DNA of 64,000 nucleotides from a virus, in IMG/VR virus record IMGVR_UViG_3300008516_000159; one strand, 5' to 3'. Below are positions 8,908 to 62,719 of the stretch, piece after piece. The notes beneath the pieces were generated by a model. The model worked only from the letters and a program-made list of their open reading frames with translations. It had not been told where the DNA came from and made no database searches. Numbering within the stretch: position 1 is the stretch's first letter; every line of letters begins with the position of its first letter. Both the position numbers and the translations under genes were made by a program.

Positions 8908-9198
8908 ATGACAGAAGCCGAACTTTACAATCTAAAATTACCGGCAGCTTTACATATCCAAGACACGCTTGGAAACCGCGCGCATATCATCAACGTCACG
9001 GCGCGCCGCGTGAGACGCGTGTTTTTCGATGTTCAAACAGTCAGACTTTACAACAGCAACAAAAGATATATTATATTTCACAGTCGAGGCGAATCTTCAG
9101 GAATCGCGGTTCTTGACGGAGAAATTCTGACAGGAACATCGAAGCTATCACATCAGAAAGCCAAGAGGAGCATGATCCTCATGGCCTTAGGACGATAA
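8908..9198 (+). CDS. Hypothetical protein with C-terminal KAKRSMILMAL helix
   Basis: Lone plus-strand ORF filling gap; shared C-terminal motif. Confidence 0.55.
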   Translation: MTEAELYNLKLPAALHIQDTLGNRAHIINVTARRVRRVFFDVQTVRLYNSNKRYIIFHSRGESSGIAVLDGEILTGTSKLSHQKAKRSMILMALGR

Positions 9199-10473
9199 CA
9201 ACTGCGTTAATCTGAATGTCCCGTAATCAATATCAAACTCAATCCTCATTGATGATTCGCCGTTTCTATTTTTGGCAACATATAATGTCATTTTGTTCTG
9301 TCCCTTTTGGTCCTGGCTCTGGCTTATCGTCGCAAAAAAATCAAGTATCTGTAATTTAATAATCGAATCTGCGATAAGCGCTCCTGAAATAATCTCCTTG
9401 GTACCGCCTTCTTTATCCATGGACTCTCTGTTGGTTTGTGAAGCTGTAATAATCGGAACTTCCATCTCGACAGCAAGGCCCCTGAGATTTTCATATATGT
9501 TGCCTAACTCCTCATACTTAGAAGAATAAGCATGAGTTGGTTTCATAATGTCTGCATAATCTACGATTATCATATCTGGCGTGAAGCCTTCGTAAACTTT
9601 TAATTTCTCCAAGTGAGCTTTTATAGAATTAACATTGCCACCTCTGGTTGGAAACTCTTTAATGTACAACCTAGCCTGTGTTCTGGCCTGTATCTCATTC
9701 ATTTTCTTTTTGAGTTCAGGTACCTCGTTTTTCAATTGAAGTGATGGTATACGGCTCATACAGGCATCATAACGCATACCGAGCCTTTCTTCGGATATTT
9801 CAAACGTATAGACCGCCACGTTGTAGTTTTTCAATAAAGCATTAGCGCCAACATTAACCAAGAATATAGATTTGCCTATCCCAGGTGGGGCTCCGAAACA
9901 GAATAAGCTTTTCTTTTCGAAACCACCGCCAAGGACCTTATCTATAAACGTCCAGCCGGACGGAACTTTTTCCAGGTGTAATTGATTGATACGTTCGTAT
10001 CGCTCTTCTATTTTCCATATGTCGATGCCAAGATCTATATCAATATTGAATAGTAGTGCGTCTTTGACTAAATCGTTTATTTCATCGAAGCTGTCATTCT
10101 GAAGCAAATCGACGGACTTGTACAAGGCATCCCGCATGCGAGCCTTTTTAGTAAAGCTCTTGACTTCGTCTAGTAGGTATTGTTTGTCTTTCCCGGAAAG
10201 TTCCTGATCATATATTACATCTGCGGCCCTCTTGACTGTATCCTTGTCTAGGTTGACATTCTTGAGTCTGTCAAATAAGATATTTTCGCTTGGAAGTTTA
10301 TTATACTTCTCAAATAATAACTTGAATGTAACAAAGATAGACTTGGTGACGCGATTATCAAAATAATGCGGCTCCAGGCTGTTCAGCATAAGTAGCCAAA
10401 AACTTCTATCGCGTAAGCTGTAGTTGAGTATTTCGAGCTCTAGTTGGTAGCCAAATTGGGGGGATTCTTTCAA
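9187..10473 (-). CDS. Replicative DNA helicase (DnaB / T4 gp41-like)
   Basis: Walker A GAPPGIGKS, FEISEE, IVDYAD, TASQTNR, KNRNG. Confidence 0.93.
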   Translation of the reverse strand: MKESPQFGYQLELEILNYSLRDRSFWLLMLNSLEPHYFDNRVTKSIFVTFKLLFEKYNKLPSENILFDRLKNVNLDKDTVKRAADVIYDQELSGKDKQYLLDEVKSFTKKARMRDALYKSVDLLQNDSFDEINDLVKDALLFNIDIDLGIDIWKIEERYERINQLHLEKVPSGWTFIDKVLGGGFEKKSLFCFGAPPGIGKSIFLVNVGANALLKNYNVAVYTFEISEERLGMRYDACMSRIPSLQLKNEVPELKKKMNEIQARTQARLYIKEFPTRGGNVNSIKAHLEKLKVYEGFTPDMIIVDYADIMKPTHAYSSKYEELGNIYENLRGLAVEMEVPIITASQTNRESMDKEGGTKEIISGALIADSIIKLQILDFFATISQSQDQKGQNKMTLYVAKNRNGESSMRIEFDIDYGTFRLTQLLSS

Positions 10474-11107: not shown

Positions 11108-11847
11108 TGAAATTCTCTGATATAGTCGAAGCTGGTGTCGACAAGTCTGTCAAAAGAGATGTCAAGCACACAGAAAGAGCAGTAAAACTAGTTGGCAAAC
11201 GCTTGTATGATACAGCCACGCAGGCTTCCTATTATCATAAGAAAATGAAAGAGCTAGAAAGAAAGAGGGCCAGCTTGAAGGACAGGGTGGCTGTTTCTAG
11301 AAAACCCACAAAAGACATAGGGGAAGTAGCAGCACTAGATCATGCCATAAAGGATTATAAGGTAAAGATCAGAGACATGGGAAGTAAAATCGGATCTTAC
11401 CTGGCCGCAATGCCTTTCGGTACCAAAAAACAATACTTGACTACCATTCAGAAAAGATTCCCTGAGATATATACTTTCTTAAGAGTAGAACCAAAACAAG
11501 AGCGCGCCGATCAATTAGCCAGGGACAAAGAGGCGCGGCCAGGAGAACAAGTGGCACCGGAGCAACAGCCTCCTGGCGAACCAAAAGAACTTATTGATAA
11601 AATGAGACGCGAAATAGTCGACCTCAAAAAACAGCTTGCCGACAAACCAGAAGCACAACCCGCAAACGAAATAAGAGACGCTTTAATTGGCACTCTCACA
11701 TCGGATATGTATGGATATGGTGTTCGAGAGAGCGAAGCGTTTGTAGATAAATGGCTCAAGGCCAACCCACCAAAACCAAACGAAAAAATCCAAGATATAC
11801 TACCACGATTTCTTGCCGACATGGCAGAACAAAAAAGCCTCGTTTGA
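11107..11847 (+). CDS. Coiled-coil protein, possible internal head protein
   Basis: MKFSDIVEA N-terminus; translationally coupled. Confidence 0.7.
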   Translation: MKFSDIVEAGVDKSVKRDVKHTERAVKLVGKRLYDTATQASYYHKKMKELERKRASLKDRVAVSRKPTKDIGEVAALDHAIKDYKVKIRDMGSKIGSYLAAMPFGTKKQYLTTIQKRFPEIYTFLRVEPKQERADQLARDKEARPGEQVAPEQQPPGEPKELIDKMRREIVDLKKQLADKPEAQPANEIRDALIGTLTSDMYGYGVRESEAFVDKWLKANPPKPNEKIQDILPRFLADMAEQKSLV

Positions 11848-17923: not shown

Positions 17924-17945
17924 TCAATATTCCATGACATATAAT

Positions 17946-18297
17946 TGGAGCCGGGGAGGTTCGAACTCCCGTCCCTCGAATATTCACTTTGAAACACTAC
18001 ATGCTTAGCCCTGCTGCGGGATTCGGTTATTAATTCACAGGACGAAACGTCATAACCTAGCCTAACTTGTTTTTCGCTTTTGAATCGGTATTGGCTTCGG
18101 TTCAAATAGCATAGTCTCCGTTTCTGACGCCCTATTTCTCACCAGAGACAATAAGAAATAGAACGGCTGCTTAATTAAGCAGCAAGTGCAAGTGTTTCGT
18201 TAGCAACTATAGTTTGAATGGTCTTTTAAAGAGCCTTACCAAACTCTGCATGCGTCTCAAAGATCATCATCCCAGGTCGAATCCAAATGTCGGCCCC
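17946..18297 (-). ncRNA. ssrA: tmRNA, tag (A)ANETLALAA
   Basis: GGGGCCG...GGAUUCGAC 5' end, G3-U70 acceptor, T arm GGGAGUUCGAACCUCCC, tag GCTAACGAAACACTTGCACTTGCTGCT TAA. Confidence 0.97.
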
Positions 18298-24863: not shown

Positions 24864-24935
24864 AGCCCCTACTCGGATTCGAACCGAGATAAGATGGTTT
24901 TAGAAACCACCGCCTAACCATTCGGCCATAGGGAC
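24864..24935 (-). tRNA. Amber suppressor tRNA (anticodon CUA), U73
   Basis: Cloverleaf: GUGGU UU-CUA-AA ACCAU, T arm CUCGG UUCGAAU CCGAG. Confidence 0.88.
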
Positions 24936-31420: not shown

Positions 31421-31443
31421 TAAATTCTCAACCTATATTCTTG

Positions 31444-31529
31444 TGCCCGAGGAGAGATTCGAACTCTCACGACCTTCAAGATCACAAGGCCCTCGACCTT
31501 GCGCGGCTACCTAGTTACGCCACCCGGGC
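31444..31529 (-). tRNA. tRNA-Leu(GAG), long variable arm, C33
   Basis: Loop UC-GAG-GG. Confidence 0.9.
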
Positions 31530-38412: not shown

Positions 38413-38486
38413 TGAGCGATAGTGGGTTCGAACCACTGACCTCTTGGACGTCGACCAAGCGCTCATACCAACTGAGCTAATCGCCC
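38413..38486 (-). tRNA. tRNA-Val(GAC), C33, G37
   Basis: GGGCGAUUAGCUCAG start; loop UC-GAC-GU. Confidence 0.88.
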
Positions 38487-40830: not shown

Positions 40831-41277
40831 CTAGGACACTGGTGTGAATCTCCCCTGTTTACTTAGATCCCTCCTTTCATAAGCCCATTTGGAGCGACAG
40901 GATTTCGAACAAAACGTGTTTGTAATTCCTCTTTTCATCCTCTTGCGATGATCTCGCTCTAATCTTTCAAACCGCATGCCGCATTCGTTGCACACGAGAG
41001 TGATTTGTGGAGATTTTCGCGGCCGAGGACGGTTGCGCTTTCTGTGGCTAAAAGCGATATTATCCAAATCAAAGAAAAGTTCGATTGGATCCTTGCTGTG
41101 TAGCCACGGCACCTTATGTTCTATACTCAACTCATCGGCGCCTTCAATCCTCTTTCCGCATCGAAAACAAACATCTTCTCCCAAACGTCGAACCATATTG
41201 AACAACAACATTTTTTTCAGTTTGGAGGCGGCAGTTGTGTGGCTCACACCCAACTGTTCTTTTTTGGAGTCACTCAT
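40831..41277 (-). CDS. HNH-family endonuclease with C-terminal Zn finger
   Basis: CFRCG..SIEHKVPW..LDNIAFSH..N; CNECG..FCSKSC. Confidence 0.78.
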   Translation of the reverse strand: MSDSKKEQLGVSHTTAASKLKKMLLFNMVRRLGEDVCFRCGKRIEGADELSIEHKVPWLHSKDPIELFFDLDNIAFSHRKRNRPRPRKSPQITLVCNECGMRFERLERDHRKRMKRGITNTFCSKSCRSKWAYERRDLSKQGRFTPVS

Positions 41278-41297
41278 TTTAAGCCTTTTTTAAAAGA

Positions 41298-41550
41298 ATA
41301 ATAGCTCTCATAACCTGGATTCTGATTAAATCTACATCTATCTCAGCCTTAGACTGGCCCTTGCGAGCTGCCCGCTACCCGCTCATCATGATGCCACTTA
41401 CGCATTAGAGCTGCTTGCGGTCGCACGGTAGATCGCCATAGCGATCTTTATGAGTGGTAAAACGGCTTGTGGCCTCCCACACTAAGTGGACCGTGTCCAG
41501 AGTTTTCTCTACATATTGTGAAATATGCAGCGTAGATCCGGAGCTATTAT
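41298..41550 (-). ncRNA. rnpB: RNase P RNA, minimal (253 nt)
   Basis: P1 AUAAUAGCUC/GAGCUAUUAU; P2 AUCUAC/GUAGAU; P3 hairpin; CR-I GAGAAAACUCUGG and CR-V CAGAAUCCAGGUUA form P4 with bulged U; L15 GGGUA; CR-IV AGAUAGAUG. Confidence 0.87.
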
Positions 41551-41551
41551 T

Positions 41552-41623
41552 TAGGCCGAGCGGGATTCGAACCCAGCATTGAGCGGTTATAAGCCGCCGA
41601 GTCTACCATTGACTTACCGGCCC
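41552..41623 (-). tRNA. tRNA-Ile(UAU)
   Basis: Loop CU-UAU-AA. Confidence 0.9.
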
Positions 41624-41677
41624 GTGCGCTTGGCAAACTTCTCAGCGAGCTTTTCTGTCGCTATTGTTTCTACGTAT

Positions 41678-41706
41678 AGTATACCAAGCAATCCTAAAAT
41701 TGTAAA
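41678..41706 (-). promoter_or_regulatory. sigma70-type promoter upstream of tRNA-Ile(UAU) and rnpB
   Basis: TTTACA-N17-TATACT. Confidence 0.75.
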
Positions 41707-41729
41707 GGTATTAATTAAAATCTGCATCT

Positions 41730-41903
41730 CTATATCTCCATAGCCGATTCATCGATACAACTAGCACAGAGCCAATGTTTAGTATAATCACCATACATGT
41801 CGGCAGCATATGGATCTTCAGTGTATTCTGCGTTAGGATTGCCACACCTTTCGCAGGGTTTGGATAATAAAAGCTCTTTTGCTTTTTCGGCCTTTTGTTT
41901 CAC
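41730..41903 (-). CDS. KAKELLL Zn-finger paralog (not in ORF track)
   Basis: GTG start; KAEKAKELLLSKPCERCG..EDPY..KHWLCASC. Confidence 0.75.
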   Translation of the reverse strand: MKQKAEKAKELLLSKPCERCGNPNAEYTEDPYAADMYGDYTKHWLCASCIDESAMEI

Positions 41904-50146: not shown

Positions 50147-50529
50147 TAGGGTAATGTTAAAGCGTATTTGGCCTGTGCGGCTTTATTTGCTAACCTAACA
50201 TGACCATTTTTGATCATATTTTCTATGATGGTGTATGACACGTGCATAACCTTGTTGATAGTACCATCCTTCATAACGGCCGCAAAAATAACCGCGTTAT
50301 CTCTTACGTAATATTCAGGTCCACTTATGTGTAGGACGCCATCAAATCTGACGTATTTGGTAAGTTTTTTAAGTTCTTCTTTTGTTATAACAGAATACGC
50401 TGGCAGCATAATCTGTTCTTTCTCGACTGGATATTTATTCCAGTCTATTTCGTAAACCTTGGCTAATTTAAAAAAATTATGTTCGGGTTTCATTGTTAGT
50501 GTGATTTCGGTAACTTCGTCCGTGTCCAT
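50146..50529 (-). CDS. Hypothetical protein
   Basis: RBS aagga; tail AQAKYAL. Confidence 0.7.
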   Translation of the reverse strand: MDTDEVTEITLTMKPEHNFFKLAKVYEIDWNKYPVEKEQIMLPAYSVITKEELKKLTKYVRFDGVLHISGPEYYVRDNAVIFAAVMKDGTINKVMHVSYTIIENMIKNGHVRLANKAAQAKYALTLP

Positions 50530-50541
50530 GTAACGATCCTT

Positions 50542-50580
50542 AAAAAAAAAATATAAAGCCTGAGACTAGAGCTCTATATG
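50542..50580 (-). terminator. Intrinsic terminator closing the large ncRNA
   Basis: AUAUAGAGC...GCUUUAUAU followed by U-run. Confidence 0.65.
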
Positions 50581-51410
50581 TTAACCCTTTCATTCCCTTA
50601 CGGTTTGGGTGCTATCCAAACCTTAGGAACTTATCCACCGATCCAGGACCGGTAGGTTAACACAGCTGCTTTTTTATACTGGTAGCGGTTCCAGTGTCGC
50701 ACTGAATCACTCGGCTATCTGGGTACCGTCAGCCTTGCGAGCTGTAAAGAGGCGCTAACCTCACCGTGCTCCTTTCAACCAACCTTCCGCCGCCTTGCGA
50801 GCCTTGGAAAGTCCATATTCCCCGAAGGGTACGGAGTTGAGCTGCTTTCATCCAGCACCGGGTCAGTCTTTGCAGATATTCCAACGTATCGGAATCGAAC
50901 CGATCACATTATGCTCCTCAAGGCATACGCTCTACCAAACTGAGCTAACATTGATAAAACGGGTCACCCCGCGGCAACACCGTGCTAACCCACCAGTTTC
51001 ATAGGCTTTTGGCCTACGGAATGCCGGACGGTGCTTGTCTTTCCCTTGCCAGGTACTGAACGGTTTTTCAAGATCGATGTGCTCCCAACGCATACCGTTG
51101 GGCGGATATGCCCACCAACCTATCAAACTGCTATGAGGCGCTCACTTGCGAGGCTCGCACAACATAACTACTGTTCACTCTCCTGTTTGACCGATTTTGG
51201 TTGCAAGTAATCGATTTCCAGTCGAAAGAAATAATGCCAGTGTTACCCACATCATTTCCTGTCCTTGCTCGGCGTCCACACAAGCTCCGCGAGGACCGCG
51301 AAGCCATTGGAGTGTCAGCTTGCTTGAATTGACCATCCGAAGATGGCGACGGTCGCCAACCCGCCTTTACAGTCCTTGCGAACTGCTGTCAATGTCAAGC
51401 CACTATATAC
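50579..51410 (-). ncRNA. Large ornate ncRNA, GOLLD-like, with embedded tRNA
   Basis: About 830 nt GC-rich, no credible ORF, over 10 hairpins with GCAA/UUCG loops, long-range GUUAACC/GGUUAAC, own promoter motif and terminator. Confidence 0.7.
50880..50954 (-). tRNA. Embedded tRNA-like domain with 8-nt anticodon loop (CUUGAGGA)
   Basis: D arm GCUC AGUUUGGUA GAGC; stem UAUGC/GCAUA; T arm AUCGG UUCGAUU CCGAU. Confidence 0.75.
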
Positions 51411-51446
51411 TTTTTTCAAAGAACAATCTTTTCTTGGAATGCAGAG

Positions 51447-51455
51447 TTATATATG
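51447..51455 (-). promoter_or_regulatory. Candidate phage promoter motif CATATATAA
   Basis: Recurrent motif in front of genes and RNAs. Confidence 0.5.
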
Positions 51456-51484
51456 CTTCCAGAAATAGCTTTTTTTTATCTTTT

Positions 51485-51703
51485 TTAATAACCGCTTATC
51501 TCAATACTTCTGGATGTTCCACAGCCAGGGCACTTAACATCAACAGAAAGTTCTCCGTGAGATCCACAAAGCTCACAAGGACTACTCCAGTGATTAAACG
51601 CAAACTCGTCAACTTTCACTCTGTGTGATTTATCACACTTGCTGCAGTGAAACTTCACAGTAATACTTTCTAAAGTGAATTCGATCTTCTTGCCTCTGGC
51701 CAT
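51485..51703 (-). CDS. Zinc-ribbon protein
   Basis: CSKC, CELCG, CPGC; RBS aggagg. Confidence 0.75.
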   Translation of the reverse strand: MARGKKIEFTLESITVKFHCSKCDKSHRVKVDEFAFNHWSSPCELCGSHGELSVDVKCPGCGTSRSIEISGY

Positions 51704-51791: not shown

Positions 51792-51866
51792 TCGGCCATC
51801 TCAGATTCGAACTGAGGATCTCATGCTCCCAGGGCATGCGGAGTGACCAAACTCTCCTAATGGCCG
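51792..51866 (-). tRNA. tRNA-Pro(UGG), C33
   Basis: C1-G72, A73, loop CC-UGG-GA. Confidence 0.87.
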
Positions 51867-51900: not shown

Positions 51901-51974
51901 TCGGGACGGCTGGATTCGAACCAGCGACTACCTGATCCCAGGTCAGGTGGGGTAGCCAGCTCCCCTACGCCCCG
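51901..51974 (-). tRNA. tRNA-Pro(UGG), C33
   Basis: C1-G72, A73, loop CC-UGG-GA. Confidence 0.87.
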
Positions 51975-54469: not shown

Positions 54470-54492
54470 CTCACCTCAATATATATGTTTTG

Positions 54493-54567
54493 AGCCCGCG
54501 GCCGGATTCGAACCGACACACCCCTGTTTACGGGACAGGACTCTGACCGAGTTTGAGCTACGCGGGC
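54493..54567 (-). tRNA. tRNA-Thr(CGU), C33
   Basis: Loop CC-CGU-AA, U73. Confidence 0.87.
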
Positions 54568-55368: not shown

Positions 55369-55431
55369 AATCTTCCTTCCTTTCTATCTATTTTCTACCT
55401 GTCTGCTTGTTTGTTGTATACATATGTTATG

Positions 55432-55504
55432 AGCTGACGCCGGGAATCGAACCCGGGACCTGCTGATTACCGATCAGCTGCGCTACCGCCTGTGCCACGT
55501 CAGC
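55432..55504 (-). tRNA. tRNA-Thr(GGU), C33
   Basis: Loop UC-GGU-AA, U73. Confidence 0.88.
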
Positions 55505-60324: not shown

Positions 60325-60411
60325 CTGTCCCGGCTGGATTCGAACCAGCGTTCACCTTGTAAGGGCCTTTGATTTAACGGACCAACGCTCTACCAGCTGA
60401 GCTACGGGACA
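60325..60411 (-). tRNA. tRNA-Asn(GUU) with long variable arm, C33
   Basis: U1-A72, G73, loop CC-GUU-AA, 19-nt arm containing CCUU-ACA-AGG. Confidence 0.82.
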
Positions 60412-62648: not shown

Positions 62649-62719
62649 TAAATAAATACTGCCTCTGGTTCTTCCAACAGCGGCATTTTATTGTTTGTCG
62701 TCAAGATTATATATGCTAT

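Follow-up and report, generated by a model that had tools for sequence, protein, structure and literature searches.

A divergent GOLLD RNA of a large uncultivated phage carries a tRNA-like module in its linker

The closest described relatives of the RNA analyzed here are the GOLLD RNAs, which are among the very few natural RNAs shown to form a protein-free closed cage. Two of them have been solved, env-38 (833 nt, a 14-mer cage, PDB 9MEE) and the Streptococcus agalactiae GOLLD (700 nt, a 12-mer, 9L0R). In the solved cage, linker J13/15 makes an intermolecular kissing loop with L20, and the conserved A's of L14/P14, whose stems are variable, make A-minor contacts (10.1101/2024.12.08.627333). 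The linker lies inside the cage, and tRNAs occur in it (PMC12286853). A Mycolicibacterium GOLLD has a tRNA-Phe in J13/15 (cited in PMC12990946), and the Mycobacterium/Mycolicibacterium GOLLD with a linker tRNA lies in a horizontally acquired tRNA array (PMC12990946, PMC6582537); a “pseudo tRNA” within a Mycobacterium GOLLD could not be detected as an RNA of its own (PMC6582537). Since linker tRNAs have been published, an embedded tRNA is in itself a known feature. ROOL, the other cage-forming phage RNA, makes a homo-oligomeric cage with an internal disordered linker (PMC12286853).

We analyzed a 64-kb stretch of DNA from an uncultivated large phage (the window), for which an initial annotation had suggested either a member of GOLLD or a new class of giant ncRNA, with a tRNA embedded in its middle. 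Scanned with Rfam 15 at curated thresholds, the whole window gave a single GOLLD (RF02032) match, at 51036-50557 on the minus strand. It covers positions 1-416 of the 416-position model and scores 155.7 bits with E 1e-41, the gathering score being 150. A local permissive search of 50400-51600 returned the identical match plus a tRNA, and ROOL, OLE and every other Rfam family were without a match at E<=1. The full-model match, together with a tRNA in the linker where published GOLLDs have tRNAs, bears out the first option and excludes a new class. Two insertions, a 75-nt tRNA in the linker and an additional hairpin (GGUUUGG/CCAAACC) in the P26 loop, keep the score to just 5.7 bits above the gathering threshold; the 3'-domain landmarks, namely the L14 loop CAAAA, GUGGAUAA and the terminal loop UCUCAG, are all present in the model alignment. 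The location beside tRNA genes in a phage is also that of GOLLDs. Judged from its sequence, the unit is almost certainly a divergent, full-length member of the family in a large uncultivated phage; the RNA is a further GOLLD, not a new RNA class, and has nothing outside the known family features.

For comparison, a pattern from the GOLLD 3' end, GTGGATAA...AAAG...TCTCAGNCT (GUGGAUAA...AAAG...UCUCAGNCU), found at least 118 IMG/VR loci, and all 14 of the 14 pattern-picked loci that were checked proved to be GOLLDs (163-218 bits) within tRNA islands. Among the matches listed, the sole close relative is L044, on a 189-kb IMG/VR contig, which shares 72% identity with the window in the 5' domain and 78% in the 3' domain; the homology spans exactly from CTGGAAGCATATATAA to UCUCAGGCUUUAUA plus the T-run. 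Exact-pattern scans of IMG/VR for clade relatives with two 5'- and 3'-domain words returned L044 alone, and a blastn search of the unit against 50,697 phage records matched the tRNA part alone (T4/N4-type tRNA-Pro). Two metagenome-contig matches of a 19-mer scan were chance matches and not GOLLD, and five further GGTGGATAAGTTCNTAAGG loci (from IMG/VR and genome contigs) were also taken as chance matches because none of them has a GOLLD match.

The unit runs on the minus strand from ~51440 to ~50545. It has 50-52% G+C, against 35-44% in the flanks and 41% in the whole window, and its sense strand has no ORF longer than 64 aa, so that the earlier description of an ORF-poor, GC-rich unit holds. 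The 898-nt stretch folds at -318.6 kcal/mol and beats 20 of 20 dinucleotide shuffles (z -4.6). All the hairpins named in the initial annotation were found in the minus-strand sequence, and those of the 3' half map to Rfam GOLLD consensus helices. The long-range pairing GUUAACC/GGUUAAC that it proposed is model helix 330-336/399-405, and its UUCCU/AGGGAA pairing is a hairpin at model positions 364-393. With a conserved core of ~870 nt, the transcript would probably measure ~895 nt (minus strand, 51440 to ~50545) and would follow the GOLLD layout, leading from a 390-nt 5' domain through the P13/P14 hairpin and a linker of 115 nt to the conserved 3' domain. Its neighbors are a 72-aa zinc-ribbon-like ORF (51703-51485) and a 127-aa ORF starting at 50529.

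Upstream of the unit stands a promoter-like motif, CTGGAAGCATATATAA (51447-51462, minus), which is identical in L044, where the homology begins; the CATATATAA motif noticed earlier at 51447-51455 is real and forms part of it. The gene strand of the window has 13 copies of CATATATA and the opposite strand 2, against an expectation of ~2.3. L044 has 8 copies, all of them on its gene strand (+) and typically in the context TGGAnGCATATATA(A/C). CATATATA(A) is often preceded by TGGAnG, and window sites are found, for example, at 62715, 53119, 51455, 49490, 26106, 10508 and 2057 (minus). In both related phages, CATATATA is placed 3' of terminators and tRNAs and 5' of genes, and for this reason we take it as a likely promoter of this phage lineage; the sigma-70 consensus is not matched at 51462-51447. 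TGGAAGCATATATAA appears to be the GOLLD's own lineage-specific promoter, and the RNA probably starts near 51440, a few bases downstream of CTGGAAGCATATATAA. At the other end, a run of ten T's (50551-50542, minus) directly follows the last GOLLD helix, a T6 run stands at the equivalent place in L044, and the T10 run leads directly into the Shine-Dalgarno sequence AAGGA and the start codon (ATG, 50529) of the downstream ORF. Of the terminator annotated at 50542-50580, the T-run after the last helix stands, while its hairpin does not: no G+C-rich hairpin precedes the T10 run, and the terminator scan made no call at 50542-50551. The T10 run is the probable 3' end of the transcript, and termination probably occurs there.

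Because Rfam models the 3' domain alone, the 390 nt upstream of it needed a separate test. The candidate 5' domain (51037-51424, minus) is closed by UCUUU (51422-51418) and AAAGA (51042-51038). RNAalifold on the 5' domains of the window and L044 gave 104 pairs, of which 24 are compensatory and 0 broken. Slid controls, in which pairing partners were shifted by 1-3 columns, gave 0-2 compensatory pairs and 34-44% pairing, a contrast that is inflated because these two sequences also supplied the structure. The covariation across the full 5' domain is based mainly on one relative, L044, and the closing helix UCUUU/AAAGA is invariant between the two, so that covariation is no test of that helix. Beyond L044, the main 5' helices are common to the divergent loci L033, L088 and L089, all Rfam GOLLDs (177-218 bits), with up to five pair types at single positions. 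The motif GGGUAACACUG (51249-51239, minus) recurs, with at most one mismatch, at the matching relative position in at least 12 other loci picked by the GOLLD 3'-end motif, where chance would give about one match anywhere. The same motif (GGGUAACAC) is also found within the 5' domain of env-38, the solved 14-mer GOLLD (sequence from the supplement of PMC12286853). A hairpin, CCCAACG/CGUUGGG, within 51037-51424 (minus) is a clade-specific extra. Taking together the compensatory pairs, the helices in divergent GOLLDs and the motif in env-38, we identify the 390-nt 5' half as a structured GOLLD 5' domain of a divergent subtype.

Downstream of it, the long P13/P14 hairpin (50975-51036, minus; model 1-62), with the conserved A-rich loop CAAAA (L14), aligns to the Rfam model ungapped and with high posterior probability. 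The 3' domain core P15-P27 (50557-50859, minus; model 135-416) contains GUGGAUAA and the terminal loop UCUCAG, and its P26 loop receives the inserted GGUUUGG/CCAAACC hairpin. When 50557-51036 (P13/P14 and linker included) was compared with L044, 139 pairs were predicted, 16 of them compensatory and 0 broken. The conserved 3' end of linker J13/15, AUAUCUGCAAAGACUGACC (50860-50879, minus), aligns to the Rfam segment GCAAAAGUCU and is near-identical in L044. A search by complementarity for the published L20-J13/15 kissing loop gave no pairing that could be assigned in the phage RNA. Of additional note, AGACUG at the end of this linker (50865-50870, minus) is complementary to UAGUCU in the terminal loop L27 (50564-50569, minus). 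RNAalifold pairs these segments in both the window and L044; since they are invariant in the two, there is no covariation, and the Rfam GOLLD consensus is without this complementarity.

The remainder of the linker begins with a GNRA hairpin, CGGG-GUGA-CCCG, followed by UUUUA (50960-50971, minus) and standing directly before the tRNA-like module. Its counterpart in L044 (~11628-11645) is AUGGG-GAGA-CCCAU followed by UUUUU, a compensatory change. This hairpin and U-run (50971-50955) were scored as terminator-like by the scan, with 4-5 pairs only, and they could act as a pause or partial stop within the GOLLD.

The cloverleaf that had been noticed at 50880-50954 (minus) is recognized by both ARAGORN and the Rfam tRNA model (49.6 bits), but with an anticodon loop of 8 nt. 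The module falls at model position ~100-110, 323 nt from the 3' end, between P13/P14 and P15 (from ~50859). It has a complete cloverleaf with 7 of 7 acceptor pairs (2 of them G-U), discriminator A, a D loop AGUUUGGUA, a T loop UUCGAUU and the GG/TTCRA tertiary partners of the D and T arms; CCA is unencoded, as in all tRNAs of the phage. Its anticodon loop, CUUGAGGA, has 8 nt (CU-UGAG-GA) in place of the 7 of a canonical elongator tRNA, whose loop has U33 and a purine at 37, and for this reason ARAGORN cannot name the module, giving it the label “tRNA-???” with anticodon tgag. Over 57 nt, the module shares 84-86% identity with T4/N4-type tRNA-Pro(UGG), and the alignment has a single gap, of one base, inside the anticodon: The loop UUUG-GGA of those tRNAs aligns with CUUGAGGA, which has an extra A. 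Between the module and its L044 counterpart, compensatory changes have turned U-A into A-U in the acceptor stem and C-G into U-A in the anticodon stem, and have altered two pairs of the T stem; the anticodon arm of L044 is abnormal, with 3-4 pairs and a loop of ~9 nt. That the stems are kept by compensatory changes while the anticodon arm of L044 is abnormal argues for selection on the tRNA shape and not on a canonical anticodon loop.

Our survey extends this picture to other GOLLDs. Among the matches listed, 26 of 118 loci have a tRNA-like that ARAGORN places 292-346 nt from the 3' end, and Rfam adds at least one more (L088). An anticodon loop of a size other than 7 nt was found in 5 of the 26 linker tRNA-likes, all with 8 nt, against 4 of 455 free tRNAs of the same listed loci, all with 6 nt. 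This enrichment has a Fisher p of 3e-5 with related sequences counted separately; as L031 and L114 are near-identical, the independent odd-loop events come to about four. The acceptor stems differ as well: All seven pairs are present in 288 of 392 unique free tRNAs of the listed loci but in just 2 of 22 unique linker tRNA-likes, those of the window and L044, the other 20 having imperfect stems. Near-identical linker tRNA bodies carry GCU, UGA, UCU or 8-nt loops, without the long arm of a real tRNA-Ser. The opal-reading anticodon UCA is seen in the linker tRNA-likes of L005 and L089; among the listed loci, suppressor-type anticodons occur in 2 of 26 linkers and in 1 of 455 tRNAs elsewhere. To judge from the literature, this degeneracy of linker tRNAs in many phage GOLLDs may be tabulated here for the first time. 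In most linker “tRNAs”, the acceptor stem is imperfect or the anticodon loop is wrongly sized, while the L-shape is conserved, which points to a tethered mimic more than to a usable stock of tRNA and bears on the published idea of the cage as a tRNA store.

The GOLLD unit sits within the tRNA island of the phage. ARAGORN counts 42 tRNAs in the window, the embedded one included, together with a tmRNA, and Rfam 15 counts 39 tRNAs and the tmRNA; all are on the minus strand, the same as the unit. The window also encodes phage-type replication genes (a DnaB-like helicase, a Toprim primase and the N-terminal part of DnaE), a dihydroorotate dehydrogenase, an IMPDH/GMP-reductase-like gene and a response-regulator-HD protein. 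The best isolate-phage relatives of the DnaB-like helicase are 31-32% identical, 32% being the maximum. The standard genetic code fits the window, and we rejected stop-codon recoding, as readthrough of TAG, TGA or TAA gave no more sensible set of ORFs. A tRNA with the amber-reading anticodon CUA is present at 24864-24935 (minus). There is no sign of TAG recoding in the window: TAG terminates 21 gene-strand ORFs of at least 120 aa, and its readthrough leaves the largest ORFs unlengthened. The tmRNA of the window, at 17943-18297, belongs to the standard one-piece type. The viral contig of L005 has, at 8908-9279 and ~1.8 kb away from its GOLLD, a tmRNA gene of the permuted (two-piece) type. In the stretch 41100-41750, a permissive search with Rfam gave no match to RNase P families at E<=1 and found only a tRNA-Ile (41552-41623).

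U at position 33 of the anticodon loop is near-universal in tRNAs. In the window, C33 replaces it in 7 of the 41 free tRNAs, which are Leu-GAG, Val-GAC, two Pro-UGG, Thr-CGU, Thr-GGU and Asn-GUU (genes at 31443-31529, 38413-38486, 51792-51866, 51901-51974, 54492-54567, 55431-55504 and 60325-60411, all minus). C33 is found in 14 of 392 free tRNAs of the 118 loci among the matches listed, this window's included. This variation of the anticodon loop may be an evasion of host tRNA nucleases.

Based on these findings, the explanation that we hold with high confidence is a full-length GOLLD gene with a tethered, non-decoding tRNA look-alike in its linker. By homology with the two solved GOLLDs, the RNA would self-assemble without protein into a closed cage of 12 to 14 subunits, and we consider it likely that it assembles in this way. 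In such a cage, as in the solved relatives, the 5' domains would form the caps and the linker would point into the lumen, which would then hold 12-14 tRNA look-alikes, one per linker. The extra base in the anticodon loop suggests that the module is probably a tethered tRNA look-alike and not a working tRNA, and, from the survey, we lean toward a module that does not decode. It would serve as bait or cargo for a tRNA-binding factor, as a mimic that binds tRNA-handling factors or is protected from them.

The strongest competitor of this explanation is that the GOLLD supplies a working tRNA, as its precursor or its store. The 75-nt module would be cut out by RNase P and RNase Z, an excision that would also split the GOLLD into two domains; CCA would be added, the tRNA would be charged with Pro or Leu, and its 8-nt loop may read a +1 frameshift or four-base codon, CUCA or CCUC. 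The seven acceptor pairs, kept in L044 by compensatory change and unlike those of most linker tRNA-likes, accord with this idea, as do the canonical D and T arms, A73 and G72 as in tRNA-Pro, a 3' trailer that starts with AUA like those of the phage's free tRNAs, and the expanded loop in both clade members (8 nt in the window, ~9 nt in L044). It has also been hypothesized that GOLLD exposes covalently linked tRNAs when the cage opens (PMC12286853). However, the other linker tRNA-likes of the listed loci have mismatched acceptor stems and freely drifting anticodon loops, the anticodon stem of L044 is reduced to 3-4 pairs, and the free tRNAs of the phage already include two tRNA-Pro(UGG) and a tRNA-Leu(GAG). 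The failure to detect the Mycobacterium linker pseudo-tRNA as a separate RNA (PMC6582537) also speaks against release. Moreover, nowhere in the 64-kb window does a gene junction require a +1 shift at CUCA or CCUC; as a search of one window for a +1 step joining long frames, this is a weak negative. Release of a working tRNA therefore seems unlikely to us. Because it combines a perfect acceptor stem with an expanded loop, the module of the window and L044 would be a good substrate for testing the access of RNase P to the linker in the cage.

A more specific role for the tethered look-alike can also be imagined. The cage could be an anti-defense sponge, in which 12-14 tethered tRNA look-alikes, with anticodon loops made non-canonical on purpose, would sequester, by binding, host tRNA-targeting nucleases or other tRNA-binding factors during infection. 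Such a function, which we nevertheless regard as quite improbable, would fit with C33 in 7 of 41 free tRNAs and with anticodon loops that drift or expand in linker tRNA-likes across GOLLDs.

Another possibility is that the 5' structured RNA, the tRNA and the 3' GOLLD-like RNA are separate genes made independently. The weak terminator-like hairpin and U-run (50971-50955) before the tRNA could be read in this way, and the solved 3' domain of the S. agalactiae GOLLD assembles alone (PMC12990946). Against this, the linker hairpin has just 4-5 pairs, the promoter-like motif occurs once only, upstream of the whole unit, and the Rfam model runs across the tRNA, matching P13/P14 on its 5' side and P15-P27 on its 3' side. 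The order of 5' domain, P13/P14, linker and 3' domain is moreover that of the solved full-length GOLLDs, and independent genes are thus very improbable. Finally, a protein-coding region or an RNA class unrelated to GOLLD, for which a 143-aa ORF on the opposite strand (51197-51628) might be cited, has a negligible chance and is ruled out by the GOLLD model match (E 1e-41), the 1- and 2-base indels and 40 compensatory base-pair changes in the L044 alignment, and the lack of a Pfam match for any ORF in the unit even at E 0.1.

Frameshift-suppressor tRNAs of the sufA6/SufB2 class, which act in the +1 direction, are derived from tRNA-Pro and have an extra G beside the anticodon. The phage module resembles them in joining a tRNA-Pro-like body to one extra anticodon-loop base; unlike them, it has its extra A inside UGG and is embedded in a giant RNA, and no gene requiring a frameshift was seen in the 64-kb window. 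ROOL and the phage RNA are both large ornate phage RNAs near tRNA islands, but their sequences and folds are unrelated, and there was no ROOL match at E<=1. The GOLLD of Mycobacterium/Mycolicibacterium shares with the phage RNA a tRNA-shaped element in J13/15 and a setting in a tRNA array (PMC12990946, PMC6582537). In contrast to the mycobacterial element, the phage module resembles tRNA-Pro(UGG), its acceptor stem is perfect but its anticodon loop has 8 nt, and it belongs to an uncultivated large phage and not to a mycobacterial chromosome.

Compared with the solved GOLLDs, the phage RNA has a 5' domain so divergent in sequence that L044 alone can be aligned to it by BLAST, and it has extra hairpins in the 5' domain and the P26 loop. 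Its linker of ~115 nt is longer than that of env-38 (42 nt, disordered) because it holds the tRNA-like and the GNRA hairpin. The findings on the tRNA module leave the family assignment unchanged, and the RNA is an ordinary find for a GOLLD. In common with RF02032, it has a 3' domain above the gathering score, a 5' domain with GGGUAACAC, an A-rich L14 loop and a linker that joins P13 to P15, and it lies in a phage, next to a tRNA island; it adds to the family a divergent full-length GOLLD from a large phage with a near-complete tRNA set.
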